59,470 nucleotides of DNA from a bacterium. Lineage in GTDB: Bacteria > Electryoneota > RPQS01. The notes under the pieces were generated by a model. The model ran no database searches and was not told the DNA's origin. It saw only the letters and a list, made by a program, of their open reading frames with translations. The stretch's first letter is position 1. Each line of letters opens with the position of its first letter. The DNA is taken from contig JAHJDG010000127.1 of NCBI GenBank assembly GCA_018812265.1, forward strand, positions 1 through 59,470, given 5' to 3'. Shown here piece by piece: positions 1 to 50,295 of the stretch. Made by a program: the position numbers and the translations under genes.

Positions 1-2980
1 CACCGCCGGAACCGCTGACGCGGACGCGTCCCACGTACACGCCGCTCTCGACTCCGCCCACGTCCCACATCACCTCGAACGGTTCGGGAATCGCCGACTG
101 ATGGCTTAGTCTGGCGATCAAGCGGCCCGCCAGGTCGAACACCTTGATCTCCGCGCGAGCGATGTAGCCCACGGTAATCCGAAAATGACTTATGTCGGAC
201 GTGGGGTTGGGCCAGCAGTACAGCCAATCGGCGCGCGTGGTCACGCGGGGATTGAACAAGGGAACATTAATGATCGCACGGGATTCCGTATAATGGAAGC
301 GACTGTCGCCGTGCGCGTCAAGCAAACGGATCGGCGAAAAATACAAATCATCTCCCACGGATGTGAGTCGCATTACGTACAAACTGCGGTCGTTCGTCCA
401 TTCGAACGGAGTATGACTCGATTCCACGCCGGAAACCGCCCATGGGAATCCCCTGAACGCGCCTCCGTTGTGCGATACGGCAATGACTCGCGTATATAGC
501 GAGGATTCACTCGTTGAATCGAAAACGGGAGCGTCCAGACCCATAATATCCGGATCTCCACTGGCATTTAGATCCAGCGTCCACGTCAGTGGAGCGCCAA
601 TCCTCGGCGCATCTTCGCGCTCTACGGCGTTGCGGCCCAACCAGCCTCCCCCGTCGGGTATCCCGTTGCCGTCCCAATCTATACCGGGCGGACCGCAACT
701 CGGATGCTCGCAGAGGGACGTTCCCGTCGCGGCATTGACATATCCCATTCCATCGAAGAACACGGCGGTTGTATCCGGTCGGACGACAACGAGTATCGAG
801 TGCGACAGTCGCTCGTCCGCGATGGACCAGAGCGAGTCCATCGTTGTATCGCCTACCGAATAGCATACGGCCAGACCGTCCGTCACGAAGACAAACCGAT
901 GAGCCGGAAAGCTCTCCAGATTGAAGACCGCAACACTGTCATCAGCAAGGAAAGGCAGATCACGTTCGCTCAACCGGACCAATTCCGCGTCGTATAAAGT
1001 CGCAACATAGTTTGAGCGGGTTCGCCAGACCAATAGTCCGCGGCCATCGGCGCTATCGGATTGCGCCGGAAATGCCCGCGACGACCATTCGGAAGTGATC
1101 TCCCACCGCACGCGGGGATCGGTTCCCGACCAGTCCACCAAGCCGATGTATGCTCCTTCCAGGAGGATCTCGTCGCGACCGTCTCCGTCAACATCCACCG
1201 GATCGGTTGAAGAGAGACCGACTCCAGCGGGGAGCGAAGCCACAACGGATAGCACACCCTGATGAGAAATCTGATACAGTGAATCGCGGAGAATGAAGTA
1301 GATCTCGCGGAGGCTGTCGCCGTCGAGGTCTGCCACCGTCCATTCTGAAAGATCGGGTACTTGCACCGGAAAGCCGTCGGCCACACCTTCCATCCGGCAG
1401 ACAAAACTCATGACGCTGTCCACCGCCGAGAAATTGGAGAGACGCAATCGCGTGTACGACCCGTCATAAATACGGGCGGCGGGGAAGGAGTAATCCGCAA
1501 ACAACTCGTAATTCGCGCCACGGTTGGCGGCACGGTGTTGCGAATTATTCAAGTACCATGCGTCTTCCTGAATGCCGAGTTCGGTTCCGGACCCCGCCGA
1601 CGCGAAGCCGTACTCGCGTCCGATGTCCTGTGCGCCATCCGCCTCGACAAGATCCACTCCTCGATGATCGGGGTCGGCATTGACGGTGTTGTCATCGAGT
1701 CCCCGCACGATGACGTCCTCATCAATGTGCCAGATGAGAAGTCCACTGCCGGGAATTCCGAAATCATAGTGACTCGCTCCCACGGCAACTCCGAATCCCG
1801 GTTGATACTCAATGCGGCGGTCCCGCGACAGCAGGAATCCTTCCCGTGCCTGCGTACGTTCCTCGTAGTAGACATGCATCACATGCAGGCTGTCGCGATC
1901 CCACAGCGTAACACACTTGACGGAATCCGCGTCGGCATCGCGATTCTCGATTACGTAGTACTCACGAGCTGTGACGGGAATCTTCACGATTTGAGCAACA
2001 TCTCCCCCCCGGCCGAAGCGAGCCACATGAAGCGTATCGCCACGTCCCGACGGAAGATGAACCGCAGCCGCTTGCCATTCCATGTACACACGAGACCAGG
2101 CCGTAGGAAGCGACGGGACCAACGCCGACATATTACCCGATCCCTGATCCATCATTCCCCATCGCCCGACTCCGCTGTGTCCGGTTCGCGTGTCAAACAA
2201 ATCGGGCAGACCGAGCCAGTTGCCAAACAGCTTCACCATAATGCCATTAAGCGAGAGTTCCACGTCATAATCAAGCGCTTCCCGCTGGTTTTCCCCCTCC
2301 GGAAGAATCAGCCCCCGCTCGACTCCGCCTGGAATCTGAATGCTGCCCGAATAGCTCTGGACATCCCGCGCTGAGATGTAGGCCGAGGGAATGTCGAACG
2401 GCGTAGGGTCATAACCAAGATTGAAGTCCTTGCCGACTCCCGCATGAAATACCAGAATGGCGTTGTAGCGAGTGAAATCCAATTCGGGATCTTCCGATGC
2501 TTTGGCGCATGACTCTATGAACAGTTCGACCAGCCGGCGGTTAAGCAGCTCCGCATCCGAGTTGTAGTTGTAATGCCACATCGGATAATCGAGCCGGTAG
2601 GCGGAGCCTTCAATTAGCGGGAATACATCCATCATCGTCGTATCGAAGACGACTCCGCCCCGCGAAACCGTCTCGTAGTAGTGTCGGAGGAAGCGCAGAT
2701 GATCGCGAAAGTATTCGCGGTCGTGCGGAAGCGGATCAATTACGAGAGAGGAATCGAATCCCGTGCCTATGCGGCCCGTGCCCGTCGTGCCTTCAATACT
2801 ATCTTCCTGGAACTCCACGAGAATGGCACAGACGCGAATCGGATCGCCGACCGGCCATCGCTCGGAGAGTGAACACGTTCGCCCACTCTGCAACGCCACC
2901 GCGCCCACGGACGCGGCGAGCGCCGGAAGAGCAAACGTAACGGCAAGTAAGCCGGCGAGTAGAGTTCCTCGGATCGTCAC
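1..2980 (-). CDS. Exported M6 (immune inhibitor A)-like pseudo-metalloprotease with FG-GAP-like repeats and a T9SS-type C-terminal domain; 3' end runs off the window; absent from the ORF track
   Basis: Manual translation from GTG at 2980 stays open to position 2 (~993 codons). Signal peptide MTIRGTLLAGLLAVTFALPALAA. M6-like motifs VFHAGVGKD, LGLPDLFDT, GRWGMMDQGSG, YYVIENR, GLLIWHIDE, DLVEADG. DxDGD repeats DLDGDSLREI and DVDGDGRDEIL. CTD: WPNP...IKVFDLAGRLIA...WDVGGVESGVYVGRV. Confidence 0.85.
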   Translation of the reverse strand, partial: MTIRGTLLAGLLAVTFALPALAASVGAVALQSGRTCSLSERWPVGDPIRVCAILVEFQEDSIEGTTGTGRIGTGFDSSLVIDPLPHDREYFRDHLRFLRHYYETVSRGGVVFDTTMMDVFPLIEGSAYRLDYPMWHYNYNSDAELLNRRLVELFIESCAKASEDPELDFTRYNAILVFHAGVGKDFNLGYDPTPFDIPSAYISARDVQSYSGSIQIPGGVERGLILPEGENQREALDYDVELSLNGIMVKLFGNWLGLPDLFDTRTGHSGVGRWGMMDQGSGNMSALVPSLPTAWSRVYMEWQAAAVHLPSGRGDTLHVARFGRGGDVAQIVKIPVTAREYYVIENRDADADSVKCVTLWDRDSLHVMHVYYEERTQAREGFLLSRDRRIEYQPGFGVAVGASHYDFGIPGSGLLIWHIDEDVIVRGLDDNTVNADPDHRGVDLVEADGAQDIGREYGFASAGSGTELGIQEDAWYLNNSQHRAANRGANYELFADYSFPAARIYDGSYTRLRLSNFSAVDSVMSFVCRMEGVADGFPVQVPDLSEWTVADLDGDSLREIYFILRDSLYQISHQGVLSVVASLPAGVGLSSTDPVDVDGDGRDEILLEGAYIGLVDWSGTDPRVRWEITSEWSSRAFPAQSDSADGRGLLVWRTRSNYVATLYDAELVRLSERDLPFLADDSVAVFNLESFPAHRFVFVTDGLAVCYSVGDTTMDSLWSIADERLSHSILVVVRPDTTAVFFDGMGYVNAATGTSLCEHPSCGPPGIDWDGNGIPDGGGWLGRNAVEREDAPRIGAPLTWTLDLNASGDPDIMGLDAPVFDSTSESSLYTRVIAVSHNGGAFRGFPWAVSGVESSHTPFEWTNDRSLYVMRLTSVGDDLYFSPIRLLDAHGDSRFHYTESRAIINVPLFNPRVTTRADWLYCWPNPTSDISHFRITVGYIARAEIKVFDLAGRLIARLSHQSAIPEPFEVMWDVGGVESGVYVGRVRVSGSGG

Positions 2981-2987
2981 CGGCCGC

Positions 2988-4034
2988 CTACAGATCCACC
3001 GACAAAGAATACCGCATCGTGTCGGTCAACGGGTGATTGGTTCCGGCCGTCAGATAGCTGAAATCGAAACGGTAGCTGCTGTACCGGAGCGAAACCCCAA
3101 AGGTATAGGGGAAGACCTTTCCGAGATCATCATTCCAGTATCCGGCGCGCAAACCCACGAGGGTCGAGTACCAATACTCGACTCCGACGTTCCAGATCAG
3201 CGACTTGACGAGGTCGCCGTCGCTCCAGGCCGTGAAGAGCGCTTCATAGAATTCATCGGAACGCCCTTTGTCGTCGCGTTTCACGAGCTCCTTGTTCACG
3301 TCGGAGGCGATAGTGAGCTGGTTGTATTCCTGATCAATGATCTTGTAGGCAAATCCCATCTTGAGATTGGTAGGCAACGGATCGGCCTGCGCCCGGTCAA
3401 TGTAGGCGACTTTCGGCCCCATGTTGGACAGGTTCGCACCCAGTGACAATCCCCTTAGGAAGGCTGCCCGATGGAGGATCCCGACGTCGGCGGCAATTGC
3501 CGTAGCCGTTCCGCTTCCCTTTTCCTCACCGGCTCCTTGATCCGATAAGTGGCTGTAGGCAAGTTTGAGTCCGACACCCATTGCAAGATGCGGATTGATT
3601 TCCGCGCCATAGGTTCCGGTCAGGGCGATTTCATAGGATGAGAAGGTGCCTTCATTGCGACCTTGTTCATCGGTGCGCTGCGTCTCGCCTAAATTGAGGA
3701 AGATGAGGTTGCCGCCGAAGGTTCCCCATTCGGGGACTTCATGCGTCGCGCTCATGTAGGCATAGTACAGATCGGACAGATTGAACTGCGGGAGCCAGCG
3801 GACGTACATCATAGTGAACTCCTGTCCATGCTGAAATCCCAAGCCAGCAGGATTCCACCAGGTTGCGCTGGCGTCGTCGGAAATGGCGACAAACGCCTCT
3901 CCCATTCCGGCCGGTCGCGCCCCGGGTGCGATTTTCAAGAACAGAAGCGTCGCCTGGCTGACGCTGGCAGCCTGCACAACGGCAGTGCACAGCAAGGCTC
4001 CCAGAATCAGCAGGCCTGTCACCGCTCGCTTCAT
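2988..4034 (-). CDS. porV: PorV/PorQ-family outer-membrane beta-barrel (T9SS shuttle-like)
   Basis: LFLKIAPGARPAGMGEAFVAISDDASATWWNPAGL N-terminal motif; signal peptide; GGAGG RBS before ATG at 4034 (the ORF track starts 10 codons early). Confidence 0.85.
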   Translation of the reverse strand: MKRAVTGLLILGALLCTAVVQAASVSQATLLFLKIAPGARPAGMGEAFVAISDDASATWWNPAGLGFQHGQEFTMMYVRWLPQFNLSDLYYAYMSATHEVPEWGTFGGNLIFLNLGETQRTDEQGRNEGTFSSYEIALTGTYGAEINPHLAMGVGLKLAYSHLSDQGAGEEKGSGTATAIAADVGILHRAAFLRGLSLGANLSNMGPKVAYIDRAQADPLPTNLKMGFAYKIIDQEYNQLTIASDVNKELVKRDDKGRSDEFYEALFTAWSDGDLVKSLIWNVGVEYWYSTLVGLRAGYWNDDLGKVFPYTFGVSLRYSSYRFDFSYLTAGTNHPLTDTMRYSLSVDL

Positions 4035-4070
4035 AGGTCCTCCAGTAGATGTATGTTCATTCACGAAAGT

Positions 4071-7000
4071 TCAGCGCAGAATCACGAGCTTGCCGGTACT
4101 CTCGGCGGAATAGCCACCCGCATGCTCCGCTTTGATCTTGTAGAAATAAACGCCGTTGGCGAGGAGATGCCCCTCGCGATCGCGGCCGTCCCACGGGCGA
4201 TCGGAATTGCTGTTGAAAGCGGGACCGGCCGTCCCCAGTCCGTCCATCTCATAGACCAGTTTTCCCGAGAGCGTGAAGAGGCGCAGACGCACGCGGCGTG
4301 TATTTTCCTGTGTCAGATAGTACGTGAAATAGGTGACGTCATTCATCGGATTCGGCCAGTTGTAGACGTCACGGATGGCATATCCGGCCTCACCGGCCGC
4401 TCCCACGGTGAAGGTGAGCGTGGTTTGGTTCAGGTTGTTGAACGAGTCCCAGGCTTCGACGGTCAGGCGATGTTCACCTTCGGCGAGCGGGCCAATTATT
4501 TTATCGAGGCTTCCCGACCTGTGGCTGTCGAGTTCGTAGTTGAAGAACGGCGTCAGGTCCTCGGTTTGCGCATCGTCAATCCGAACCGTGATCTTGTGCC
4601 CGACTTCGCCTGAAAGATTGACGCCCGAGGCATCCGTAATGGCAACATGAAGTTTGGGCGTCGCGCTGACCAAGTCTCCCGGGCGGAAGGAAGCCGTCTC
4701 CAGCCACACGCGGATCTCAGGGGCAATCGTGTCGGTTTCCGACGAGGCTTGAGCGGCAATCGGAATATGCTCGCGGATACCGATGCCATCGGCCGAGTCG
4801 GATTCGCTGTCGGCCTTGCCGAAAAAGTAGAGACTGATCTTGGCGTTATTTCCACCATAGCGAACATCGCGGGGAACCCGGAAGGTCACTGAGTCAAATC
4901 TGCCATTTTGAACCGTCGCCCGACCACGGAAGATGGCGTTGCCGGGAAGCCCGACGTAGTATGGTGGAAGATTGGTGTTGTCGCACCAGTAGTAGGCAAG
5001 TGAGTCCTCGGTATCGAATACTCGGACTTCCACCACGCCCTGGAAATCCGACCATACGGGTCCGCCGGAGGATCGGGACACCTCCCCACTTAAGGTAAAC
5101 AAGGACAAAGCGCGCAGAGAATCGTCGGCGACGGTGACCTGGGCGAAGTACTCGGGGGTAGCAAGCCGGAGCACCGGATCGCCAAATAAATGGTAGAGAT
5201 TCACATTGCTTACGCGGGTTGCCTTTCCGACCAGCAGGGCATGGCCGAAGCTCTGGCGCGAGGCCAGACCTTGGCGGAACAGCTCGCTGTAGAAGGCAAT
5301 GGTAAACGTATTGTTGGGTGCGATGTACGTGAATCGCGTTGCCGCGACACAGGCCACCGCGCCGTCTCGGGGATCGGCCAGCAGCTCTTCCGGAAAGCAG
5401 CGGACGAGCGGTTTGTCGAAAGCGCCCCACGAGCAGGTTGCGGCCAAGAACAACGGCCACATCCGATAGTTGTTGAGCAGATTGCGGTCACGTTCCATGA
5501 CAAACAGCTGTTCATCGGACCAAATCCGCTCGTTACCATGACCCGCGTAGTTAATGATCAGAGTCCCGCGGTTGATAGCTTCAATCAGATCCCGCGTCGC
5601 GTCCGGTTTGACCGGACCGACGGGCGTATGCTTCATCGGATAGAATATCTCATATAGTTTGTTGAATGTGAAGTACTCAGGCAGCACGTCGTTAATGAGA
5701 TTTTCAGCCTGTTGCGTGTGCTGAGTCTCGCTGCCGGACGTCCAGCAGGTGACTTTATTCTCATCATCAGCGGCAAAACTCGCCGTATTCTTCCACGGAC
5801 CGTAGAGCGGGTGGGTGGCATAGGCGATGGTCTTCGAGACTGCGGTTTCGACCTCTGCCCGGCTCTGGGAAGGCCAGCGTCCCGCCAACAGCCACGGCAA
5901 TTGAGAACTGTTGCTGAACAGAGTGAAGAAGTCGTCGGTGCTGTTCGAGTTCGATTCCCACGGCGGCATCCAGTTGGCGTCAGCACTGGACTCGATGTTT
6001 CGGTAGTCATAGTCGCCGTCCCCCACGAACAACACGTATTTCACGGTGTCGGTTCCGTCCGAGCCGTGCCAATTGAAATAGGCGTACTTCAGGAAATTGC
6101 GGATCGCCACCGGATCGCGGACGCCCCAGCCGAACTCATCGAAGACGTCGCCCAGACGAACACGGACGGCGGACAGAGGCTCCTCACGATAGGATTCATG
6201 GAACTGCTTTAGGGAATCAAGAGCATCGTACCACTCGTCGTAGGTAAGCAGAATGATGCCGGCCCCGTTCAGCGGATCGCGCAGTTGGGAATAATCCAAG
6301 TCCGGCAGAGTTTTCGCTCCCCGAAAGACGGGATTGCGAATGCGATCCGGATTCGACGCGAAGTAACGACGCGGTACACTCATATAGGAAGAATCAACCA
6401 GAGTACTTCCAATGGCGCGGCGAGGTTGAAGGGGATTGCTGACATCGAGAATGAGAGCATTTTCGTTCAAGCCGCTGATCACATAGCGGAATTGTCCGGT
6501 CAGAGTTCGCGGCGCGAAGAATTCCAGCATGCCGTTATTGGCCGTCAGATCCCGGTCGAACTCGATCTCGACATAGTTGACGTAGACGGTGGCGGCGCTG
6601 GAAGGAAGGGTCAGATTCTGCATCCGGACGATATTGGCTCCGGGCTGCAGAACTCCGGCAGGGATCGGAACGCTATAGGGCGCGGTCGTATAGTGAGCGC
6701 TGTCCACCAGAGTGCTGCCGACATAGACGTTGAAGTTCTGGCCGACGTATTCCCGTGAATCGAAATCGAGACGGAGGGTGCCGGCAGTGCCAAGGGCGCC
6801 CGGCAGATTCAGGGAAAAGGTCCGTTCCTGCTGCGCGCCAAACGACGCCATGAACCAAATGAGACCGGATTCCCGGTAATCACCCGGCGCCCGGATAAAG
6901 ATATCCTGATCAACGTATTCGCGTACCCGGGTTCGATTGATTGGCGTGCCGCCGCCGGCCGCGGTGATCGGCGGCATTCGGAGGCCGTCGGAACCCATCG

Positions 7001-7976
7001 GATCCACGCCGACGAAATAGACGTTCTCGGTGGAGAACGGACTATGATGTGCCAGCGCGTTCAGGTACGTTTCATCACAGTAGTCCGCGCCCTTCAGTCC
7101 GCGTCCGAAAAAGAGAATGCGGTCTTCGGCGTCGAATACGCCGTCGCCGTCCACGTCTTCCATATGGATCGCGTTTTCCTTCAATTCCTCATCCACGGGA
7201 GTATCGGGCGACGTCGGAAGCAACCGGCCGCCGTTACCAAAAAGCTTGATCTTCGCCGCCGGCTGACCCACCAGACCCGCACCCGCCAAGGAAGAACCGG
7301 TAACCTGATAGATACCCGTCTCCGTCACCGCCAGACGATAGAGGGCGAAAGTAGGCCAGGAGAAGTAATCATCAAACGCTGTTTGGCGCGGATACGGCTG
7401 CCACCACGTCGAGGCAGTCAAGCCGTTCACGGCAATCGCCGACAGAATATCCCCTTCGCGTCCCACCGGCGCGGTTGACGTCGGCGTGCCCTCAAAGAGT
7501 ACGGACAGATCGGCGGACTCGAGAATCTGTGAGCGGCGAGCGTCACCAATCTGCAGAAAAACCACCACTTGGGCAAGGCGGAAGCCCTTCCACTCCTCAG
7601 TACGCTCAAGTATCGCCCAGGAGTGTCCTACCTGTTTCGCCGCATCCCCGACCAGAACGGGAGTACCCGGCAGACCGCCGTCGGTATTCCTTGTTCGAAC
7701 CGCGCCAATACGGAGATGCGGAGTGGTTCCGGGAGGCACCACGACGTAGAATGCCCGAACCGGCTGAACGAACTTCTCGGCAATCCAATAGTCCGCGTCG
7801 TCCCATCCGGTCAGGATACCGTACGGATTGACCGTATCGGGAACCTGAAATGCCGGATCGCCCGGAGCATACGTCCAAGTGCACTCACGGCTATCGGAGC
7901 GGGCAACGTGCACACCCGCGAACGTCCAAGATGTCAGAAAGACCCCCGCCAGAGTGATGGCTATTATAACTCTCAT
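4071..7976 (-). CDS. porU: PorU-like C25 (gingipain-family) T9SS sortase with FlgD-Ig-type CTD
   Basis: 1301 aa; signal peptide; FDEFGWG-RDPVAIRNFLKY and LFVGDGDYDYR; catalytic dyad NYAGHG and AATCSWG intact; C-terminus YNWPNP...WDGRDREGHLLANGVYFYKIKA; directly upstream of porV. Confidence 0.85.
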   Translation of the reverse strand: MRVIIAITLAGVFLTSWTFAGVHVARSDSRECTWTYAPGDPAFQVPDTVNPYGILTGWDDADYWIAEKFVQPVRAFYVVVPPGTTPHLRIGAVRTRNTDGGLPGTPVLVGDAAKQVGHSWAILERTEEWKGFRLAQVVVFLQIGDARRSQILESADLSVLFEGTPTSTAPVGREGDILSAIAVNGLTASTWWQPYPRQTAFDDYFSWPTFALYRLAVTETGIYQVTGSSLAGAGLVGQPAAKIKLFGNGGRLLPTSPDTPVDEELKENAIHMEDVDGDGVFDAEDRILFFGRGLKGADYCDETYLNALAHHSPFSTENVYFVGVDPMGSDGLRMPPITAAGGGTPINRTRVREYVDQDIFIRAPGDYRESGLIWFMASFGAQQERTFSLNLPGALGTAGTLRLDFDSREYVGQNFNVYVGSTLVDSAHYTTAPYSVPIPAGVLQPGANIVRMQNLTLPSSAATVYVNYVEIEFDRDLTANNGMLEFFAPRTLTGQFRYVISGLNENALILDVSNPLQPRRAIGSTLVDSSYMSVPRRYFASNPDRIRNPVFRGAKTLPDLDYSQLRDPLNGAGIILLTYDEWYDALDSLKQFHESYREEPLSAVRVRLGDVFDEFGWGVRDPVAIRNFLKYAYFNWHGSDGTDTVKYVLFVGDGDYDYRNIESSADANWMPPWESNSNSTDDFFTLFSNSSQLPWLLAGRWPSQSRAEVETAVSKTIAYATHPLYGPWKNTASFAADDENKVTCWTSGSETQHTQQAENLINDVLPEYFTFNKLYEIFYPMKHTPVGPVKPDATRDLIEAINRGTLIINYAGHGNERIWSDEQLFVMERDRNLLNNYRMWPLFLAATCSWGAFDKPLVRCFPEELLADPRDGAVACVAATRFTYIAPNNTFTIAFYSELFRQGLASRQSFGHALLVGKATRVSNVNLYHLFGDPVLRLATPEYFAQVTVADDSLRALSLFTLSGEVSRSSGGPVWSDFQGVVEVRVFDTEDSLAYYWCDNTNLPPYYVGLPGNAIFRGRATVQNGRFDSVTFRVPRDVRYGGNNAKISLYFFGKADSESDSADGIGIREHIPIAAQASSETDTIAPEIRVWLETASFRPGDLVSATPKLHVAITDASGVNLSGEVGHKITVRIDDAQTEDLTPFFNYELDSHRSGSLDKIIGPLAEGEHRLTVEAWDSFNNLNQTTLTFTVGAAGEAGYAIRDVYNWPNPMNDVTYFTYYLTQENTRRVRLRLFTLSGKLVYEMDGLGTAGPAFNSNSDRPWDGRDREGHLLANGVYFYKIKAEHAGGYSAESTGKLVILR

Positions 7977-8200
7977 GGGACATTCCCCTCAGAATGGACG
8001 ATATCCATGAGAAACGACCGAGCACACCCAGCGGGTGTACCCGGTCGGAAAACACTGCTCGAAAACCTTGAGTCATGCCCGGAGGCAAGAGGAATAGTCA
8101 ACAAAAGGGATCCTAAATCACCAAGCTGTCGGACTCTAAATCCTCTATCGAACGGGCATGCGTCTCCTGCGCTGTAAACCGATAGCGACCTTAACAACCT

Positions 8201-8229
8201 AATTTAACAATTCTTGGAACGGTTGTCAA
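8201..8229 (-). promoter_or_regulatory. Sigma70-type promoter for the porU operon
   Basis: TTGACA (8229-8224), 17-nt spacer ending TGn, TAAATT (8206-8201). Confidence 0.7.
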
Positions 8230-8292: not shown

Positions 8293-9516
8293 TCAGCCAA
8301 ATAGGGTATTGATGTGGACAGGGTCAGATGCATTTCTAAGTACCAAGTACTCCTCCGAAGTCGGAGCCTCATCCTCGTTGGCCTGACCTTCAGCCGGGAA
8401 ATCGCCGCGGTTTTCCAATGACAGGATGAACGCCCCGACACACAACGGACAGAATTGGGTGCCTGACCCCGAGCGGAGTTCCTGCGCCGCCTCAGACGTG
8501 CTCATGGCCTTCCGGTATGCACGATGCGAACGCATGGCATCGAAAGCGTCTGCCACGGCAAGAATTCGGCCTTCCAGACTGATTTGGGTGCCCCGTAGGC
8601 CGTTGGGATAGCCACTGCCGTTGAAGCGCTCGTGGTGTTCGCGGACGATCCGCCGAATCTGAGTCAGAAACGGCAGTGATTTGAGGATATTATCGGTCAG
8701 AAAAATGTGGGATGCCATGATCCGGTGTTCATCAGGCAACAACGGACCGGGTTTGTTCAGGATCTGATCCGGCACGCCGATCTTGCCGAGGTCATGGAGG
8801 ACGCTGGCAAATCTCAGATCATGACGAGCCTCGTCGGAGAGACCCAGCACGTCGGCCATCAGAGAACAATAATAGAAGACCCGATCGCTGTGGCCTTTGG
8901 TGTAGGGATCTTTGGCCTCAACCGCCGCCGTCAGGGAGGTTACCATGTCCAAGTAGGCATTCTGTAATTCGGCCGACAGCGTTTCGATGCAGGCCTTTTG
9001 CTTCTCGACGGTCAGTTCCTCGCTGCGGATGCGGTCCCGGGCAGCCTGCAGCGAACGTTCCATCTCGGTGGCGGCAAGCTTCAGGCGGCGATTGTAGTCG
9101 AGAACGTCCTTGCGCAGATGGTCATGTTCGCAGAGCGATTCATAGTGCTCCAGCGCGCGGCGAATCGTAGAGACCAATGCCGCCAGATCCAGAGGTTTCG
9201 TGACAAACTTATATACGTTCCCTCGATTGATCGCTTCAACGGCCACGTTCAAGTCGGGGAGACCGGTCATGAGAATGGACACGATGCGTCGTCCGGAGCC
9301 CTGCATCTCCGCCAGCAGATCCACACCGCAACCGTCGGGCAGGTTGTGATCCGACAACACGACTCGGAAGGAGTGAACGGTCAATTCGGCCCGTGCCGCG
9401 GCAACCGTTTCTGCCGTCCGCAACGTGAAGCCTTCATCGGCCAACGTCTCGCGGAGAAGCTGCAGAACCGATGGATCGTCCTCGATGATTAGCAGATCGT
9501 GATCGTTATTGTCCAT
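8293..9516 (-). CDS. Response regulator receiver + coiled coil + HD-GYP cyclic dinucleotide phosphodiesterase
   Basis: REC domain (LLIIEDD, SDHNLPD, FVTKP); HDLGKIG and HHERFNGSGYP motifs; start placed at MDNND (9516). Confidence 0.9.
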   Translation of the reverse strand: MDNNDHDLLIIEDDPSVLQLLRETLADEGFTLRTAETVAAARAELTVHSFRVVLSDHNLPDGCGVDLLAEMQGSGRRIVSILMTGLPDLNVAVEAINRGNVYKFVTKPLDLAALVSTIRRALEHYESLCEHDHLRKDVLDYNRRLKLAATEMERSLQAARDRIRSEELTVEKQKACIETLSAELQNAYLDMVTSLTAAVEAKDPYTKGHSDRVFYYCSLMADVLGLSDEARHDLRFASVLHDLGKIGVPDQILNKPGPLLPDEHRIMASHIFLTDNILKSLPFLTQIRRIVREHHERFNGSGYPNGLRGTQISLEGRILAVADAFDAMRSHRAYRKAMSTSEAAQELRSGSGTQFCPLCVGAFILSLENRGDFPAEGQANEDEAPTSEEYLVLRNASDPVHINTLFG

Positions 9517-9613
9517 GCGCCCTTGACAAGCGGATACGCCGTCGTGAAGTCTGAACCGCGTAGAATCAACCGCTATAAGTGCGGCAAATACGGGGCCATG
9601 ATCCGTTGCGGGT

Positions 9614-10366
9614 CTACGACTGCAACTCGCCAATTGCGCGCAGAAAGACATCCTCCAGATCCGCTTGGTCGGTTTGCCGGCGCAGTTCATCGGGCGTACC
9701 CGAAGCACATACTCGTCCGCGATGGAGAATGATAAGGCGGTCACAGAGCTTCTCGGCCTCGCGCATCACGTGAGTCGAGAAAATAACGCACCGGCCGCGT
9801 CTGCGCGAGTCGTGAATGAATCGCACGATCTGCGCCGAGGCCAGGATGTCCAAACCTGACGTAGGCTCGTCGAAGATCAACACCGGCGGGTCATGCACAA
9901 TCGTTCGCGCGATGCTGACCCGCTGTTTCTGACCGCTGGAAAGTTTGTCACAGCGACGGGTGAGAAAATCCCCCATATCGAGCTGCTCGGAAATCTGCGA
10001 AAGGCGGGCGGCAATGGTCGGTTCCGAAAGCCCGTGCAAGCGTCCGAAATACTCGATCATCTCGCCGGCCGTGAGGCGACCATAGACTCCCGTATCCGAC
10101 GACAGGAATCCGATGGCGGAACGAACACGGTCCGGTTCGCTCCGCACGCTGTGGCCGGCGATCAATGCATCACCGCCCGTCGGTTTCAGTACCGTGGAAA
10201 GGATGCGGAGCGTGGTTGTTTTGCCCGCTCCATTGGTGCCCAGAACTCCAAAGACCTCGCCCGCCTGGGCATCGAAACACACGTCCATGCTCGCGCGTAC
10301 GATCTGTCCACCCGAATCGTGATAGTCTTTCGATAGACCTCGTACCGAGACCGCCACATTACTCAT
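9614..10366 (-). CDS. ABC transporter ATP-binding protein, NatA-like
   Basis: Walker A GTNGAGKTT, signature LSSGQKQR, Walker B LIFDEPT, H-loop STH; ATG at 10366 follows the GWxTD stop by 1 nt. Confidence 0.85.
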   Translation of the reverse strand: MSNVAVSVRGLSKDYHDSGGQIVRASMDVCFDAQAGEVFGVLGTNGAGKTTTLRILSTVLKPTGGDALIAGHSVRSEPDRVRSAIGFLSSDTGVYGRLTAGEMIEYFGRLHGLSEPTIAARLSQISEQLDMGDFLTRRCDKLSSGQKQRVSIARTIVHDPPVLIFDEPTSGLDILASAQIVRFIHDSRRRGRCVIFSTHVMREAEKLCDRLIILHRGRVCASGTPDELRRQTDQADLEDVFLRAIGELQS

Positions 10367-10367
10367 A

Positions 10368-11789
10368 TTATCGTCCCGGTGAGAACGGTCCGCTTGGGGA
10401 GAGCGTTTGATCGCGGGTTCGGAGTCGCTGTTCCCAGTTCGGATTGTAGATCTCGCCGCGTTTCGTGCTGTGAACGAGGTCAAGATCGCCAAAACCCTGA
10501 CGGTCCGCGAAGACGAAGAACACACCCCCTTCAAGCTGATCGTAGCCCCAGATCTCATGGTCAATGGTCTGCGGCATGGCGTAGTTGTTCTCCACGCGAT
10601 CCGGTTCGCCGTACAACACGAACACTCGACCTCGATCCGTCTTCCATCCCGGCCTTTGGAGATAGCTGTAGCGCCGGTTGGCTTCGACGATTCGGGCGAA
10701 ATAGCGGTTGCCGGCGCCGGGATCATCGCGTTCGCGTTTTTCCCAGAATTCCCTTATGAATTGCCGTTTTCCCTCGGGAGTCAGACGCCGAAGCCGGCGA
10801 TATTCATCTCGCGTAAGGATGTAGCGCATCCATCGCTCGGCACTGTCGGCATTCACGACCTCGAGGAAGTTCGGATCCACTTCCGCCAGGCGTGATCCGA
10901 ACTCGGGTTGATTCTGCAGATTCCTTCCGGCGGCAAGGTCTGCCGCCCGATACGTCCAGAATTTCTTGCGCATCGTGGCCGAGCGGCCGGATCGCAGCGA
11001 GATCACCGTCAGTTCGAGATAGTACGTTCCCGTCCGCAGAGTCGCCGTCGGAAAACCGTCTACGATAACGACCGAACTTCCGGTCGTCGGGCGAACCCCG
11101 GTCTGTTCGGGACGAACCGGCGCACCGGTTTCGGCGTCCAGCACCTTCCGAACAACCACGTGTGAATCCGCGCGTTGAGAATCGTAGTCCAATTCGTATG
11201 CTTCGGCGTAGAAATACAGAACCGGAATCTGCGTTCCATAGAATCCGGTCGCATTGGGTATCATGCGTACGCCGTGTTTCACAAACACCGATCCGTCGTC
11301 GGTATAGCTCAACTCAGTGCCGAGTTCGATTTGAGAAACGGACAAATCGCCGGTAGGCTGCGGCACCCGCAGGGAACAGGCGGCCGTCGCGACCGGCTGC
11401 GGATCCCAATGAAGCAGATGAGCCCGCAGAGCATAGCTCCCGGGCTTCATGATCAGGCGAAAGACGTGAGGATAGAAACTGCCTTGACCGTCTATCGGCT
11501 CGGTCTCGGTGCGAGCGTCCAGAGCGTGAAACGTGTCGGAGAGCACCACGTTCCCCGCTTGAAGCACGTCCAGCGAAACCTTGAACTCGGCAATCAAACT
11601 GTCGCCAACGACCTTGTAGCGAAGTCCGGCCTGTTGAACGGCGGTGTACACCTCAACGTAGCCGAGGGAATCGGCAGCACGGAAAGAGGCACAGTCCAGG
11701 TCCAGCGTGTAGTCGGCGCGGAGGGAGAAGGTCCCGATCAAGAGCGCCAACGCACAGGAAATCGAAAGGAAAGCGTCACGCATCGTCAC
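10368..11789 (-). CDS. Exported GWxTD domain protein
   Basis: Signal peptide; FWEKRE...YFARIVEANRRY...GWKTDRGRVFVLYGEP motif near the C-terminus. Confidence 0.85.
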   Translation of the reverse strand: MTMRDAFLSISCALALLIGTFSLRADYTLDLDCASFRAADSLGYVEVYTAVQQAGLRYKVVGDSLIAEFKVSLDVLQAGNVVLSDTFHALDARTETEPIDGQGSFYPHVFRLIMKPGSYALRAHLLHWDPQPVATAACSLRVPQPTGDLSVSQIELGTELSYTDDGSVFVKHGVRMIPNATGFYGTQIPVLYFYAEAYELDYDSQRADSHVVVRKVLDAETGAPVRPEQTGVRPTTGSSVVIVDGFPTATLRTGTYYLELTVISLRSGRSATMRKKFWTYRAADLAAGRNLQNQPEFGSRLAEVDPNFLEVVNADSAERWMRYILTRDEYRRLRRLTPEGKRQFIREFWEKRERDDPGAGNRYFARIVEANRRYSYLQRPGWKTDRGRVFVLYGEPDRVENNYAMPQTIDHEIWGYDQLEGGVFFVFADRQGFGDLDLVHSTKRGEIYNPNWEQRLRTRDQTLSPSGPFSPGR

Positions 11790-29514: not shown

Positions 29515-31509
29515 TTAGCCGTCGGTGGTACGCAGCTCACGCAACTCCTTTTCCCTGCGTACTTCCAGTTCCTCAAGCCGAAGCGCCGCCTGCTCCCAGA
29601 GCTCGATGAGAGAGGGCAATTCCTTCCGAATCCGATCATATTCCGCCATCAGCGACCGGCACCGTTCCGGGTCCCGATAGAGACTCTCATCGGCAAGTAC
29701 GGGTTCGATCTCAAGCTTACGGGACTCGTGGCGATCAATGTTTCGTTGAATCTTCTCCAGTTCCTTGCGCGCTTGTCGGATTCCCTCGGAGTGGCGGTTT
29801 CTCACGTCCGCTTCGAGGCGCTTACGTTCCCGTTTCTGATATCGTCCATCGGGAACCGGTTGCTCGGTTGCTTCGTGGAGACGACCTTCCCCCGATTGCA
29901 GAGCGTCTCCCGCCAAACCCTTCCGCTCGAGGTACTCCGACAAGCTCCCCGGATAATCCTGCAATCGTCCACCTTCCAACTCCATAATCCGTTCCACCAA
30001 ACGGTCAAGGAAATACCGATCGTGACTGACAACGATCAGGGTTCCGTCATACTCCTTGAGGGCACTCAGCAGCACGTCCTGTGAAGTCATGTCCAGATGA
30101 TTCGTCGGCTCATCAAGAATCAGCAGATTGGCCGGACGGAGAAGCATCTTGGCCAGGGCCAACCGAGCCTTCTCGCCGCCCGACAGAACCGATACTTTCT
30201 TGAGAACGTCGTCGCCGGAAAAGAGAAACGCGCCCAGAAGCTTCCGGAGTTCATTCTGGGTCGGTCCGTGCGATTCGGATTCCATCTCCTCAAGCACGGT
30301 GCGGCGGGGATCAAGGTGGAAGTCGGCTTCCTGAGCGAAATAATTAACCTCCACGTTGTGCCCGAGCTTGACGCTGCCGCCGGTCGGTTGCTCAATACCC
30401 GTAATCAGCCGGCAGAGCGTGGACTTGCCGGCCCCGTTGACGCCGACCAGAGCGACCTTCTGACCTCGCGCAAGCACCAGGTCCAGTTCGCTGAACACCG
30501 GAATGGAACCGTAGTGGTGATGCAGGCCGATGAATTCGAGAACGATTCGGCCGCTGGGCGGCGCGGGTGGAAAACGAAACCGAACTTGGCGGGCTGAACT
30601 GCTCAGCCTGACCTGTCCGAGTTTTTCGAGGGTCTTAATCCGGCTTTGTACTTGACTGGCCTTGGTCGCCTTGTATCGGAATCGTTCGACGAATCGCTCG
30701 ATCCGCTTGCGTTCGTCCGCGATTCGAGCCGCCTCCGCCTCCAACTGCTCCTCCCGCAGCGCGCGCGCCTTCTCGTAGGCCGAGTAATTCCCCTCGTAGA
30801 GGATCAGTTCCCCGTGGTCAATCTCGGCGATACCATCCGTAACGCTGTTCAGGAAACGGCGGTCATGGCTGACGACGATCAGCGCGCCATCGTAGCGAGT
30901 CAGATAGCCTTCCAACCACAACAGGGCGGGCAAGTCAAGATGATTCGTCGGTTCGTCGAGTAGGAGGAGATCGGGATCTTGCAGAAGAAGCTTGGCCAGA
31001 GCGATGCGCATCTGCCAGCCGCCGGAAAACTCTTCCACGCGACGTCCGTGGTCGGTATCGCGAAAGCCTAATCCCTTCAGCACCCGAGCCACTTTCGCTT
31101 CCGCCCGATAGCCCTCGAGATCCTCCCACCGGTGTTGAACCACGCCCAAACGTTCGATCAAATCCACGTCATCGGGAGTCCGGTCGAGTCTTCCGTGAAG
31201 CTCGGAAAGTTCAGATTCGAGTCGCGGCAAGTCCGGAAGACCGTTCCAGGCTTCGGCGAACAGCGTTCGACCGGAGTGAGTTACTCCTTCTTGAGGAAGA
31301 TATCCGGCGGCAAGATCGCGGGTTCGCTCCACCCGGCCGTCCGTAGGCTCAGTGACACCGAGCATGATCCTGAGTAGGGTGGTTTTGCCCGCTCCATTGG
31401 GACCGATGAGTCCGAATCGTTGACGCCGGAAGATGGACCACGACAGGGGTTTCAGCAGTATCTTCCCCGGTAAAACAAGGGCGACTTCATGAAGATGCAG
31501 CAGCCTCAT
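29515..31509 (-). CDS. ABC-F family ATP-binding protein
   Basis: Two ABC domains (GPNGAGKTT, FSGGWQMR, LLDEPTNHLD; GVNGAGKST, LSGGEK), no TM segments, C-terminal coiled coil. Confidence 0.93.
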   Translation of the reverse strand: MRLLHLHEVALVLPGKILLKPLSWSIFRRQRFGLIGPNGAGKTTLLRIMLGVTEPTDGRVERTRDLAAGYLPQEGVTHSGRTLFAEAWNGLPDLPRLESELSELHGRLDRTPDDVDLIERLGVVQHRWEDLEGYRAEAKVARVLKGLGFRDTDHGRRVEEFSGGWQMRIALAKLLLQDPDLLLLDEPTNHLDLPALLWLEGYLTRYDGALIVVSHDRRFLNSVTDGIAEIDHGELILYEGNYSAYEKARALREEQLEAEAARIADERKRIERFVERFRYKATKASQVQSRIKTLEKLGQVRLSSSARQVRFRFPPAPPSGRIVLEFIGLHHHYGSIPVFSELDLVLARGQKVALVGVNGAGKSTLCRLITGIEQPTGGSVKLGHNVEVNYFAQEADFHLDPRRTVLEEMESESHGPTQNELRKLLGAFLFSGDDVLKKVSVLSGGEKARLALAKMLLRPANLLILDEPTNHLDMTSQDVLLSALKEYDGTLIVVSHDRYFLDRLVERIMELEGGRLQDYPGSLSEYLERKGLAGDALQSGEGRLHEATEQPVPDGRYQKRERKRLEADVRNRHSEGIRQARKELEKIQRNIDRHESRKLEIEPVLADESLYRDPERCRSLMAEYDRIRKELPSLIELWEQAALRLEELEVRREKELRELRTTDG

Positions 31510-33263
31510 GATCGTCTTGCCAAAGCTACCGGTCGTTTTGCCGATTGCATGCGCGTGCCGCCCTTGCCCAGCGCTTCGAGGTACACGATGTATAGACCGG
31601 TCGGAACGAATTGCCCTCCATCGTCGCGGCCATCCCAGAGTATTTCGCCGGAAAAACCCGCCGCCGCGTTGTTGGCAAGTCTTCTCACCGCACGACCGCG
31701 AACGTCGTAAATCTTGACATCAATCCGAGAATCGCCATGTTCGAGCCGAAAGCGAATGAAGAGTACGTCTTCGTGTCCGTCTCCATCGGGCGAGAACGGA
31801 TTCGGCTCCAGTACAAGGAGTTGTCGAGGCATGCCCGTGGATGGCAGAGTCCGCGAGTTCGTTCGGCCCAGAGTCGAGCCTGTGCTGTCCAGCGATGCCG
31901 CCCAATTGAGGGGATCGTTGGACGCCGAGTACGCGGAGATGCGTTCGATGCTGACTCCCGCCTCACCGTTTCCCCACGATGGCCGATAGTCCACCCGGTC
32001 CACAAGCTGATGATGGGAGTCGAACAACACCAGTGAATCGCCGCTGTTGTTCAAGGTCACTTCGCCGGAATTCCAGATCATTACCGGCACGGTCGGCGGA
32101 ATGTTCTCGAACAACACTTGCGAATCGGCGGCCAACACGATGAATTGCATCGGCGGCAGTACAATCTCCGGCAGGAGCTGCAACCGCGACGTATCGAGCA
32201 GCGCCGTTCCGTCGCCGAACCGCCAACCTGCGAGATTCCACGACAGTACGCTCGCATTGTAGAGCTCGATCCACTCGCTCCGTTGGGACTCGGGCTGATA
32301 CATGATCTCGTTGATAACCAGCCAACTCTGAGCACCGGATGTACCGATGGCAATTGCCCACTCATCATTGCTGTGGCGATCATCCCGCCCGGACAGTTTC
32401 GCCACAAACGTGTGAATGGATTCATCAGGCAATGTCCAGTCGCGGCGAAACTCCTCCGAGTCACCGGGAGACAGAATCGCCGTAAGCCACCGATTCAGCA
32501 CGTGGAGCGAGTCCGTTGTTCCACTGGGCTCTATCCGTTCGTAGAGAAATAAGGAATCTCGCATCGGTTGGAGTCCGACGTTTTCCACTCGCACGGTAAT
32601 CTCGATTGTCTCCCCCACGCGCGCGTCAACAGGTGCGTAGGTCAGGGATGTAATCGCCAAGTCTTGTTCGGGAGGCGTTACGCTGTTTCGCCCTCCCGGA
32701 GTTCCCCCCAGAGTCACGGCTTCCGTCCAGTTGGAGCTGCCGTCTCCGGCAGTCGGCAGAATCTTTTCCTCTGATTGACCTTGCTCATTACCGAGAGTGT
32801 AGGTGTACGAAGAGACCGTCTGTCCTTGCGGACTGATCAGCGACACCGTCTCGGCCGTGCTGTTGGATAGACCACGGCTGCCAAACGTCGAGTTGTCTAT
32901 GGTAACGACGAGCGCGTTCTCCGGAATGCGACCGTCATAGGTCGTGCTTCCATTCTCGAAATAGTCCGGGTCGAGAATGAGAACGTACCGATTGGACTGC
33001 ACGAGAAGACCGTGCTCGAGGGCGATAACTCGATCCGTATCCGCTCCATCAGTTACCCGCCATCCGTCCAAGTTCACTGCATGGGGGCTATTATTGAAGA
33101 GCTCGATGTACTCATCATCGTTCTCATCGCCGCTCGGATTGTACATGATCTCATTCAGCGTCAGCCCCGGCGCCTCACTGGATAGCAATAGAAAACCGAT
33201 GATCACAGAGATCGCAATACTACGCAAGTGATATATCCTCGATGTGACGGACTTTCGGTTCAT
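31506..33263 (-). CDS. Exported protein with two lamin-tail domains, a CARDB-like Ig domain and a T9SS-type CTD
   Basis: Signal peptide; LNEIMYNP..EYIELFN and INEIMYQP..EWIELYN; DLAITSL...TITVRVENVG; PNPFSPDGDGHED...WDGRDDGG..VPTGLYIV. Confidence 0.8.
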   Translation of the reverse strand: MNRKSVTSRIYHLRSIAISVIIGFLLLSSEAPGLTLNEIMYNPSGDENDDEYIELFNNSPHAVNLDGWRVTDGADTDRVIALEHGLLVQSNRYVLILDPDYFENGSTTYDGRIPENALVVTIDNSTFGSRGLSNSTAETVSLISPQGQTVSSYTYTLGNEQGQSEEKILPTAGDGSSNWTEAVTLGGTPGGRNSVTPPEQDLAITSLTYAPVDARVGETIEITVRVENVGLQPMRDSLFLYERIEPSGTTDSLHVLNRWLTAILSPGDSEEFRRDWTLPDESIHTFVAKLSGRDDRHSNDEWAIAIGTSGAQSWLVINEIMYQPESQRSEWIELYNASVLSWNLAGWRFGDGTALLDTSRLQLLPEIVLPPMQFIVLAADSQVLFENIPPTVPVMIWNSGEVTLNNSGDSLVLFDSHHQLVDRVDYRPSWGNGEAGVSIERISAYSASNDPLNWAASLDSTGSTLGRTNSRTLPSTGMPRQLLVLEPNPFSPDGDGHEDVLFIRFRLEHGDSRIDVKIYDVRGRAVRRLANNAAAGFSGEILWDGRDDGGQFVPTGLYIVYLEALGKGGTRMQSAKRPVALARRS

Positions 33264-48399: not shown

Positions 48400-50295
48400 C
48401 TACTCGCGAGGCTCGCCGCCTTCTTCACCCTCCTCGCCTTTCGTGGGAGATTCTTCAGGGGGAGTTATTTCTTTCCCAGAGGACGGTTGATCCACTGTCG
48501 GCGGCAACGGAGTCGGCGGCTCATCCATGTCGCTGCCGATAATATACTGCTGGTAGGCATCGTCCTCCGGCTCTTCGGCGGCCGACTCCTCCGCCGGCGC
48601 CTGGGCCGCCAAAATGATCTTCTTCGACTCCTTGTCGAACTCAATCACCTCGAGCTGCAATTCCTCACCGACCGAGATCGCTTGCTTGCCGCCGCGAGTA
48701 ACGCGCTTCAGTTGGCTGTTGGGAGCGAAGCCCTCCACGTCCTTCGGCAATTCGACGACCACGCCTTTTTCGAGAACGCGCGCAACTTTGCCGGTGGTTC
48801 GCGTTCCCACCGCATAGAGCTGCGCGAACTCATCCCACGGATTCGCCTGTGCCTGTTTGAGTCCAAGCGCAATGCGACGTTCATTCCGATCGAAACCGAG
48901 GACGACGATCTCGACCTCTTCTCCTTTCTTCAGAATCTCACCGGGGTGACGCACGCGCTTCGTCCACGACAGATCGGAAATGTGAACGAGACCGTCAATG
49001 CCGTCTTCCAGTTCGACGAACGCCCCAAACGGTACGAGATCGCGAACCCGTCCGACGTGGCGCGTTCCCACCGCGTATTTGATTTCGAGGTTCTCCCACG
49101 GATCCGGCTCCACCTGCTTCAGTCCCAAAGAGATCTTGCGATTCTCCTTGTCAATACTGAGGACGACCACGTCAATTTCATCGCCCACCGATAGAAGGGC
49201 CGAGGGATGCTTGATATGCTGAGTCCAGCTCATTTCACTGATGTGAACCAGCCCTTCGAGACCTTTCTCGAGCTCAACGAATGCTCCGTAGCGGGCAATC
49301 GAAACGACGCGCCCATGCACTTTCGCTCCCACCGGATACTTCTCTTCCACTCCTTCCCAGGGATGAGGCTGGAGTTGTTTCAGCCCGATGGAGATGCGCT
49401 GGCGCTCCTTGTCGTAGTCGAGAACCTTGACGGTGATCTTCGAATCGAGTTGAACCAGCTCGGACGGATGACTGACGCGTCCCCAGGAGAGATCGGTGAT
49501 GTGCAGCAAACCGTCCACACCCCCGAGATCAACAAAGACGCCGAAATCGGTGATGTTCTTCACGCTACCGGTCATCACGTCGCCGACCTTGAGCTCGCCG
49601 AGCACCTTCTCGCGGATTCCGGCCAGGCTCTCTTCGACGATCACTTTTCGCGAAACCACGATATTCTTGCGCATATCGTTCAGCTTCACGATCCGAAATT
49701 CCATTTCGTTTCCGACGAGGGCGTCAAAGTCCCGCACCGGATGCACGTCAATCTGTGAACCGGGAAGGAACGCGTCTATCGAGAGGACGTCCACCACGAA
49801 ACCGCCCTTGATGCGACGCATGACCTTGCCGCGGATAATCTCCTGATCGCGATAGATCGCTCCAATGCGCTCCCAAATCTTGAGGAAGTCCGCCTTTCTC
49901 TTGGAAAGGATCAACTGTCCTTCAGCATCTTCCACACGATCAAGATAGACCTCGACGTCATCGCCGACGTTGAACGATTCACCGGGCGCGAATTCCTCAA
50001 TGGCAACCGTGCCCTCGGACTTGAATCCAATGTCAATCGAGATTTCTTTCTCGCCGACGGCGATAATCTTGCCCTTGATGATTTCGCCCTCGCGGAACTC
50101 CATAATCATCTTCTCATAGAGTGCCGCCAAGTCCTGAGTCTCATGGGACTCGGTCTTGCTTTCGGGCAGTTCCTCCGGGCGGACCTTGCGACCGCGAAAA
50201 CGCACTTCTTCGACGATTCTCTGAGGCTCAACGGACGCCGGCACAGGTTCGCCGGCGGGTGTCGGCTCAGGAGATGGGTTTGGGGTTTGATTCAT
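48400..50295 (-). CDS. rpsA: 30S ribosomal protein S1
   Basis: Six S1 repeats (DIGFKSEG, FLPGSQ, FGVFVDLGGVDGLLHITD, GLVHISEMSW); acidic Pro-rich termini. Confidence 0.97.
   Translation of the reverse strand: MNQTPNPSPEPTPAGEPVPASVEPQRIVEEVRFRGRKVRPEELPESKTESHETQDLAALYEKMIMEFREGEIIKGKIIAVGEKEISIDIGFKSEGTVAIEEFAPGESFNVGDDVEVYLDRVEDAEGQLILSKRKADFLKIWERIGAIYRDQEIIRGKVMRRIKGGFVVDVLSIDAFLPGSQIDVHPVRDFDALVGNEMEFRIVKLNDMRKNIVVSRKVIVEESLAGIREKVLGELKVGDVMTGSVKNITDFGVFVDLGGVDGLLHITDLSWGRVSHPSELVQLDSKITVKVLDYDKERQRISIGLKQLQPHPWEGVEEKYPVGAKVHGRVVSIARYGAFVELEKGLEGLVHISEMSWTQHIKHPSALLSVGDEIDVVVLSIDKENRKISLGLKQVEPDPWENLEIKYAVGTRHVGRVRDLVPFGAFVELEDGIDGLVHISDLSWTKRVRHPGEILKKGEEVEIVVLGFDRNERRIALGLKQAQANPWDEFAQLYAVGTRTTGKVARVLEKGVVVELPKDVEGFAPNSQLKRVTRGGKQAISVGEELQLEVIEFDKESKKIILAAQAPAEESAAEEPEDDAYQQYIIGSDMDEPPTPLPPTVDQPSSGKEITPPEESPTKGEEGEEGGEPRE

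Follow-up and report, generated by a model that had tools for sequence, protein, structure and literature searches.

We analysed a 59,470-nucleotide stretch of contig JAHJDG010000127.1 (hereafter the window), at one end of which three minus-strand genes encode proteins related to a type IX secretion system (T9SS), namely the sortase PorU, the barrel protein PorV, and a third protein, here called M6i, that resembles an M6 metalloprotease with a lost active site. The reading we favour, and hold to be reasonably probable, is that this locus represents the cell-surface sorting part of a T9SS, in which M6i is a non-catalytic surface subunit associated with PorV. M6i probably belongs to the surface-attachment machinery, as a component not yet described.

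The porU-porV-M6i operon

The three genes, two of which encode a C-terminal sorting domain (CTD), are arranged as follows.

7976-4071, minus strand: porU, a T9SS sortase of the C25 family with its own CTD (1301 aa; matches NF033707 and Peptidase_C25)
4064-2988, minus strand: porV, an outer-membrane beta-barrel of the PorV/PorQ family (358 aa; begins 6 nt after porU)
2980-1, minus strand: M6i, the third gene (GTG start at 2980, 7 nt after the porV stop; at least 993 aa; 3' end beyond the window edge)

An analysis of open reading frames (ORFs) in the window recovered all three genes, tightly packed on the minus strand, in agreement with the original prediction of a porU-porV-third-gene operon; because the gaps are just 6 and 7 nt, the trio is operon-like. 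The same prediction had called the operon self-contained, which proved wrong. The third gene is cut by the window edge, and three further conserved genes lie downstream of it in relatives. An independent Joint Genome Institute (JGI) contig of a close relative has the window's gene order from SMC through M6i and then continues with the genes C3, C0 and C0 and an RmlD-like gene; thus, the window stops in mid-operon. Judged by its relatives, M6i is missing just the final few residues of its CTD. Exact look-up with the PorU and PorV sequences of the window matched no contig, and an exact 49-nt query made of the window's first bases found no match among metagenome contigs.

PorU scored 654 bits on NF033707, the curated model of the T9SS sortase, against a cut-off of 420, and matched Peptidase_C25 at 2.8e-77. 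Porphyromonas gingivalis PorU (6za2) aligned with it over nearly the whole length of the window protein (1.6e-61), with His813 (AGHG) and Cys848 (ATCS) corresponding to the NYAGHG and ATCDF motifs of 6za2. Both residues were invariant across 29 aligned orthologues, and the claim that the His/Cys dyad is intact therefore stands. By these comparisons PorU is a canonical C25 sortase, for which cleavage and transpeptidation are predicted. Its identity to the closest relatives (L001 and L019) was 68-71%. One metagenome-assembled genome (MAG; L026:499-8700) carries two full-length porU paralogues, of 1351 and 1339 aa, located 5' of porV.

PorV scored 285 bits on the PorV/PorQ family model NF033709 (cut-off 90) and 85.7 bits on the Pfam PorV model (cut-off 27), and it matched Flavobacterium johnsoniae PorV (6h3i) at 7.5e-27. 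On the models that separate the members of this family, its scores ranked as PorV (206), PorQ (97) and PorV2 (40), and the orthologues in L043 and L083 exceeded the cut-off of the PorV equivalog model NF033710, scoring 270. The window barrel is, on this ranking, nearer PorV than PorQ or PorV2. Identification of the window proteins as PorU2 and PorV2 was considered and rejected for their poor fit to the corresponding NCBIfam models. PorV was 88-90% identical to its closest relatives, L001 and L019. Ribosomal protein S1 (window 48400-50295) reached merely ~83% in its best matches, as against 88-90% for PorV, and PorV (window 2988-4064) is unusually constrained compared with S1, PorU and M6i.

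M6i has a Sec signal peptide and an M6/InhA-like domain, which is followed by a propeller of the FG-GAP type with seven blades and by a type-A CTD. Its best family was NCBIfam NF052323, named 'T9SS-dependent M6-like inactivated metalloprotease', on which the 3'-truncated window protein scored 399 bits; weaker matches were obtained to TIGR03296 (the M6 domain; 52.6 against a cut-off of 110.8), FG-GAP and Por_Secre_tail. A profile search of the PDB with the N-terminal 550 residues returned InhA (4yu5, E 1.5e-3) as the sole sequence match. In this alignment the InhA sequence HAFGHDLGLPDEY lies opposite KLFGNWLGLPDLF of window M6i, and KLFGN stands in place of HExxH. None of the 69 aligned family members retains either the first His or the Glu of HExxH, and the Asp zinc ligand of the M6 site was also lost in many of them. 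That is, neither the window M6i nor any of the 69 relatives carries the HExxH motif and catalytic Glu of an active M6 metallopeptidase. The window protein does have the hallmarks of NF052323-type proteins, an M6-like domain without HExxH joined to a type-A CTD. The lost HExxH, the type-A CTD and the InhA alignment bear out the proposal of a CTD-bearing pseudoprotease as the product of the third gene. The family is not undescribed; it is already named as NF052323. In the literature, we found no paper describing the M6i pseudoprotease or its linkage to porV.

An AlphaFold model of M6i built from 27 sequences (pLDDT 82.4, pTM 0.78) contained an alpha/beta domain at about residues 40-530, some 27 strands at residues 536-884 that fit a seven-bladed propeller, and a beta-sandwich CTD at the end. 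Foldseek comparison of the whole model with the PDB returned only generic beta-propellers with low TM-scores, a result that is uninformative on any relationship to PorZ or InhA. The family alignment showed many invariant positions outside the dead site, as expected for a retained binding surface. H86, H179, E228, D278 and the motif EADGxQDIG are among the residues invariant across members that are ~30% identical, and these residues could mark a binding cleft or an alternative metal site. It is even conceivable that M6i is still active, by way of a different metal site formed from its invariant His, Glu and Asp residues.

We propose that M6i would be exported via the T9SS by means of its CTD and then retained at the surface as a PorV-associated, non-catalytic binding subunit. 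Its dead protease cleft and its propeller may together bind a ligand (cargo or else an anchor glycan), which would be presented to PorU and/or to the product of the downstream gene C3, an outer-membrane protein with HExxH, TolB-like and Omp85-like features. Transcription of the operon could be gated by attenuation in the leader described below.

Conservation of the block and its bearing on M6i

We identified 809 relatives of M6i at E<=1e-10 among the candidates scored, and a profile search at E<=1e-30 gave 1,827 representatives of clusters formed at 50% identity. GTDB species, each represented by one genome (185,579), were scanned with two peptide patterns; this yielded 417 loci that encode an M6i relative, and 80 of these, from different assemblies, were kept. 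Synteny was assessed on the 80 kept loci by tblastn with the window proteins and by clustering of all neighbouring ORFs. In 77 loci the gene directly 5' of M6i was porV, and the remaining three are without upstream DNA. C3 (~1020 aa) follows M6i directly in 64 of the 67 loci with enough downstream DNA, one or two C0 paralogues (~220-350 aa) follow C3 wherever this could be scored (53/53), and an RmlD-like sugar reductase often comes next. About 32 loci have porU on the 5' side of porV (the window's clade, the LCP-89/Zixibacteria type, Tariuqbacter, CLD3 and others); in KSB1 proper and Marinimicrobia the two genes do not adjoin. The median gaps were 91 nt for porU-porV, 69 nt for porV-M6i and 31 nt for M6i-C3.

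The resulting (porU)-porV-M6i-C3-C0-C0 block occurs in KSB1, Calditrichota, Zixibacteria, LCP-89, Marinimicrobia, CLD3 and Ignavibacteria. The genes beyond it are housekeeping genes that vary by lineage (accBC, gcvH/P, der, ftsZ, glyA, nrdR), and for this reason we regard the block as a discrete module. Our literature searches turned up no account of it. The original prediction had described a variant sorting module; what we found is no local variant but a gene block widely common to lineages of the Fibrobacteres-Chlorobi-Bacteroidetes (FCB) group, Ignavibacteriaceae included. The prediction had also staked itself on the third gene being kept beside porV in relatives, and there it is kept, across several phylum-level groups.

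The M6i family was present in MAGs of Ignavibacteriaceae and Caldithrix. An Ignavibacteriaceae protein (P0369) scored 1030 bits on NF052323. Its gene is the M6i of a run made up of porU (930 bits), porV (which at 270 bits exceeds the equivalog cut-off), M6i, C3 and a DUF5683-like gene. Because P0369 sits in the same block, NF052323 is the Ignavibacteria orthologue of the third gene. The M6i relatives of KSB1, LCP-89 and Marinimicrobia scored 500-590 bits, under the cut-off of 600, and together with the window protein they are, by these scores, diverged relatives below the equivalog level. Since the family was detected in 417 of 185,579 species, it cannot be general in T9SS-bearing Bacteroidia, as far as one may infer from a two-pattern scan.

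The order of the block also bears on a different partnership. M6i and C3 could form a pseudoenzyme-enzyme pair within a proteolytic or biogenesis complex of the outer membrane, with PorV serving just to export and dock M6i and PorU being incidental. The conserved core run, porV-M6i-C3-C0-C0, with porU often elsewhere, points in this direction, as do the short median gap between M6i and C3 and the make-up of C3 itself: an invariant HExxH of the Peptidase_MA_2-like kind (H126-E127-x-x-H130 in L001), a TolB-like propeller (PDB TolB match 3e-22) and a C-terminal TamA/Omp85-like barrel. However, the Omp85 match is weak (E about 2e-3), a contact between M6i and C3 is hypothetical, and adjacency of porU is kept in several separate phylum-level groups, Ignavibacteria among them. 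We consider such a pair unlikely. Examples of C3 lie at L001:12982-16068, L081:12964-16071 and L083:13073-16195, and NCBIfam holds no model that spans the whole protein. The C0 proteins (examples L001:16065-17777 and L043:16192-17920) carry a signal peptide and a weak DUF5683 match, and the paralogues have the motifs PGxGQ/E and NHxLSAxHA in common.

A second alternative concerns the CTD of M6i. A locally built CTD hidden Markov model (HMM), run on the window ORFs, detected four CTD-bearing ORFs: porU, M6i (E 4e-23) and the following two.

31506-33263, minus strand: T9SS cargo candidate with two lamin-tail domains and a CTD (local CTD HMM E 6e-12)
56032-57507, minus strand: weak CTD-bearing cargo candidate (local CTD HMM E 5e-5; no Pfam match at 1e-5)

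Of the two additional CTD proteins that had been proposed elsewhere in the window, the first is thus retained (E 6e-12) and the second, at 56032-57507, is weak (E 5e-5). On window proteins, scores for the general type-A models TIGR04183 and PF18962 fell slightly under the cut-offs (20.5 and 17 against 23, and 19.7 against 27), and a precomputed PF18962 match exists in most relatives. The description of these tails as FlgD-Ig-type did not hold up; that likeness is a weak cross-match, the same tails also match Por_Secre_tail and CHU_C, and the relatives carry PF18962. Among PDB sequences, the M6i CTD was matched best by those of PorU and PorZ (PorZ 5m11, E 1.5e-3), a likeness that CTD-specific HMMs showed to be generic. 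A special 'retained-CTD' class for M6i was considered and dropped, since on these HMMs the CTD of PorU (28.5) scored no better than an ordinary cargo CTD (31.8).

M6i could accordingly be seen as a conserved and abundant T9SS cargo, an adhesin or binding protein that is co-transcribed with porV and has no part in sorting. Its generic type-A CTD scores like the ordinary cargo CTD of the same window, the NCBIfam label reads 'T9SS-dependent', and M6i evolves faster (54-61% identity to its closest relatives) than PorV (88-90%), as an exposed cargo would. Nevertheless, porV adjacency in every checkable locus, across phylum-level divergence and with changing surroundings, argues against simple cargo, as does the presence of M6i as a single copy per assembly in the 80 kept loci; a role as an enzymatic cargo also fits poorly with the dead active site. 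On balance, we judge the cargo explanation to be rather improbable.

Several observations weigh against our favoured reading, in which M6i is a PorV-associated sorting subunit. The contact of M6i with PorV or PorU that it calls for is hypothetical. In about 45 loci of the 80, porU is non-adjacent, which makes porV-M6i-C3, and not porU-M6i, the tightest link. The NCBI name of NF052323 treats the family as a T9SS-dependent protein, i.e. as cargo, and on the CTD-specific HMMs the M6i CTD resembles that of PorU (28.5) no more than that of an ordinary cargo (31.8). Two scores fall short of their models: the 399 bits of M6i lie under the NF052323 cut-off of 600, and the 206 bits of the window PorV lie under the NF033710 equivalog cut-off of 250. 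Lastly, the rest of a T9SS was not seen in the 59-kb window, where translocon and motor genes (SprA/Sov and PorK/L/M/N were looked for) were not found, nor were genes for PorQ or PorZ.

The leader of porU and the host lineage

Three features precede porU.

8229-8201, minus strand: sigma-70-like promoter (TTGACA, 17 nt, TAAATT, with TG upstream of the -10; -35 and -10 conserved)
8073-8167, minus strand: structured 5' leader (from alignment, independent folds and pair counts)
8047-8008, minus strand: intrinsic-terminator-like hairpin and T-run, ~40 nt before the porU ATG

The promoter that had been placed at 8229-8201, ahead of porU, was found, and its -35 and -10 boxes occur with the same spacing and at the same position in 14 relatives; the count of promoter-like sites in the region showed no excess over shuffles. 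Within the leader, a near-invariant block (8167-8139) reads GGAG-N5-ATG-NCC-NTT-CGN-TAG-AGG, that is, as a ribosome-binding site followed by a 4-codon mini-ORF (M-x-x-R-stop), the Arg codon of which varies synonymously. Both halves of this block pair with CCTCT...GGNCAT (8092-8075), 60-80 nt downstream, and the long helix was recovered in independent folds of 14 of 14 sequences. The motif is found once in the window, and each of 17 relatives has a single copy of it at the equivalent place. Rfam gave no match in the leader. The terminator hairpin has 15 pairs in the window sequence; RNAalifold and pair counts supported 13 pairs, of which 9 showed double changes that compensate each other; 90.7% of cells were paired. 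The leader looks like an undescribed attenuator, and we regard it as a candidate for a new attenuator or riboswitch of the porU operon.

Directly 5' of porU (window 8293-11789, minus strand) lie genes for a response regulator that carries a phosphodiesterase domain of the HD-GYP type, an ABC ATPase and a GWxTD-domain protein. Their order (clusters C9, C12 and C10) is kept in the window's clade and not in other phyla, and the HD-GYP response regulator may be tied to regulation of the operon. The remaining window genes are housekeeping genes (SMC, GatA/B, purine genes, RpsA, ScpA/B, TrpS and others), and a 567-aa ORF between cmk and scpB (51732-53435, minus strand) has no Pfam match at 1e-5.

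The window RpsA was 78-79% identical to KSB1-labelled proteins and 75% identical to Calditrichaeota-labelled proteins; against Zixibacteria and FCB-group proteins and one labelled Bacteroidetes, identity was ~60-65%. With KSB1 and Calditrichaeota as its best named matches, the genome lies, as had been suspected, outside classical Bacteroidota. The host, judged by its protein sequences, is an uncultured FCB-group bacterium near KSB1/Calditrichota and not one of the classical Bacteroidia or Flavobacteriia. The isolate name of a close relative of the same synteny class (L007, HK-STAS-AABM5-4) hints at a separate candidate lineage. Fifteen MAGs (L001, L005, L006, L009, L010, L012, L014, L015, L017, L018, L033, L043, L051, L064, L075) bear the titles 'uncultured Alphaproteobacteria', 'Candidatus Puniceispirillum' or 'uncultured Cytophagia' and have the T9SS block, with the genes that flank it, in common with MAGs labelled KSB1 and Calditrichaeota. 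These titles look like placeholders or errors, and we did not use them as taxonomy, contradicted as they are by the shared gene content. KSB1 has been described as Candidatus Zhuqueibacterota, within the FCB group, in a paper that is silent on secretion (PMC11683472). The spread of the T9SS across the FCB superphylum has already been stated in reviews (PMC11205867).

The block reported here adds to that spread a set of genes constantly found with porV in at least seven FCB lineages beyond those of Porphyromonas and Flavobacterium, which points to components or steps that are absent or replaced in the model organisms. Ignavibacteria stand inside Bacteroidota in GTDB; if this placement holds, the block is better termed FCB-wide (and lacking or undescribed in model Bacteroidia) than 'non-Bacteroidota'. 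To our knowledge, T9SS attachment has been worked out almost wholly in Porphyromonas and Flavobacterium, and how T9SS cargo is anchored outside Bacteroidia now becomes a testable question. The Ignavibacteriaceae and Caldithrix groups have cultured members, so that knockouts and pull-downs look feasible in groups that bear M6i. The conserved leader, for its part, is a candidate for a cis-regulatory RNA of a new kind that acts on a secretion operon.

A bolder reading joins all of these elements. The run porU-porV-M6i-C3-C0-C0 might be an undescribed, probably ancestral T9SS attachment machine of Ignavibacteria and FCB candidate phyla, in which M6i, the Omp85-like HExxH barrel protein and two DUF5683-like proteins take the place of PorZ and PorQ, and which is switched in the window's clade by a new attenuator RNA. 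We think this reading unlikely.

Comparison with known systems

In P. gingivalis, PorV holds PorU and PorQ holds PorZ; PorZ, which is made up of two propellers of seven blades each and a CTD that stays uncleaved, delivers anionic lipopolysaccharide (A-LPS) to PorU (PMC8545088; PMC12365241). We therefore weighed whether M6i could be a functional replacement of PorZ that binds an anchor glycolipid and passes it to PorU while keeping its CTD uncleaved. Its architecture partly echoes that of PorZ (beta-propellers, uncleaved CTD, A-LPS binding; PMC8545088), and both combine propeller and CTD in a surface protein exported by the T9SS and encoded as a component rather than an enzyme. The position of M6i within the porU-porV operon, the RmlD-like sugar reductase that often closes the block, and the lack of PorZ and PorQ genes in the window also fit such a role. 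In contrast, M6i has no sequence match to PorZ outside the CTD, and PorZ was not among the top 50 Foldseek matches of the M6i model. M6i joins a single propeller, of the FG-GAP type, to a protease-like domain, which PorZ lacks while having two propellers; the two propellers with a CTD and the similarity in sequence or fold that would identify a PorZ were thus not found in M6i. Moreover, the partner of PorZ is PorQ, yet the barrel here is PorV-like. A PorZ-like role is possible, with synteny as its support, and the porV-M6i-C3 run suggests a partnership of M6i with C3 just as strongly; we regard outright replacement of PorZ as quite improbable.

M6i also has likenesses to two known families. 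M6i shares with InhA (MEROPS M6; 4yu5) the motif GxxLGLPDxY around the active-site helix, as well as TIGR03296 matches. It differs from InhA in lacking the first zinc His and the catalytic Glu, in often having lost the Asp ligand, and in carrying a propeller and a CTD where VEG and MAM domains were not detected. With NF052323 proteins it shares the domain order, the lost HExxH and the type-A CTD. The scores of 399 bits for the window protein and 500-590 for its relatives set these apart as diverged sister clades, not equivalogs, and the name of the model says nothing on porV linkage.

As for the system as a whole, the window resembles the attachment complex of P. gingivalis and F. johnsoniae in having a C25 sortase, with its dyad and its own CTD, beside a PorV-type barrel, and it resembles their T9SS in having type-A-like CTD cargo genes near porU-porV. 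Unlike in those organisms, the host here belongs to an FCB candidate phylum, and the operon adds M6i and, in relatives, C3 and two DUF5683-like genes.

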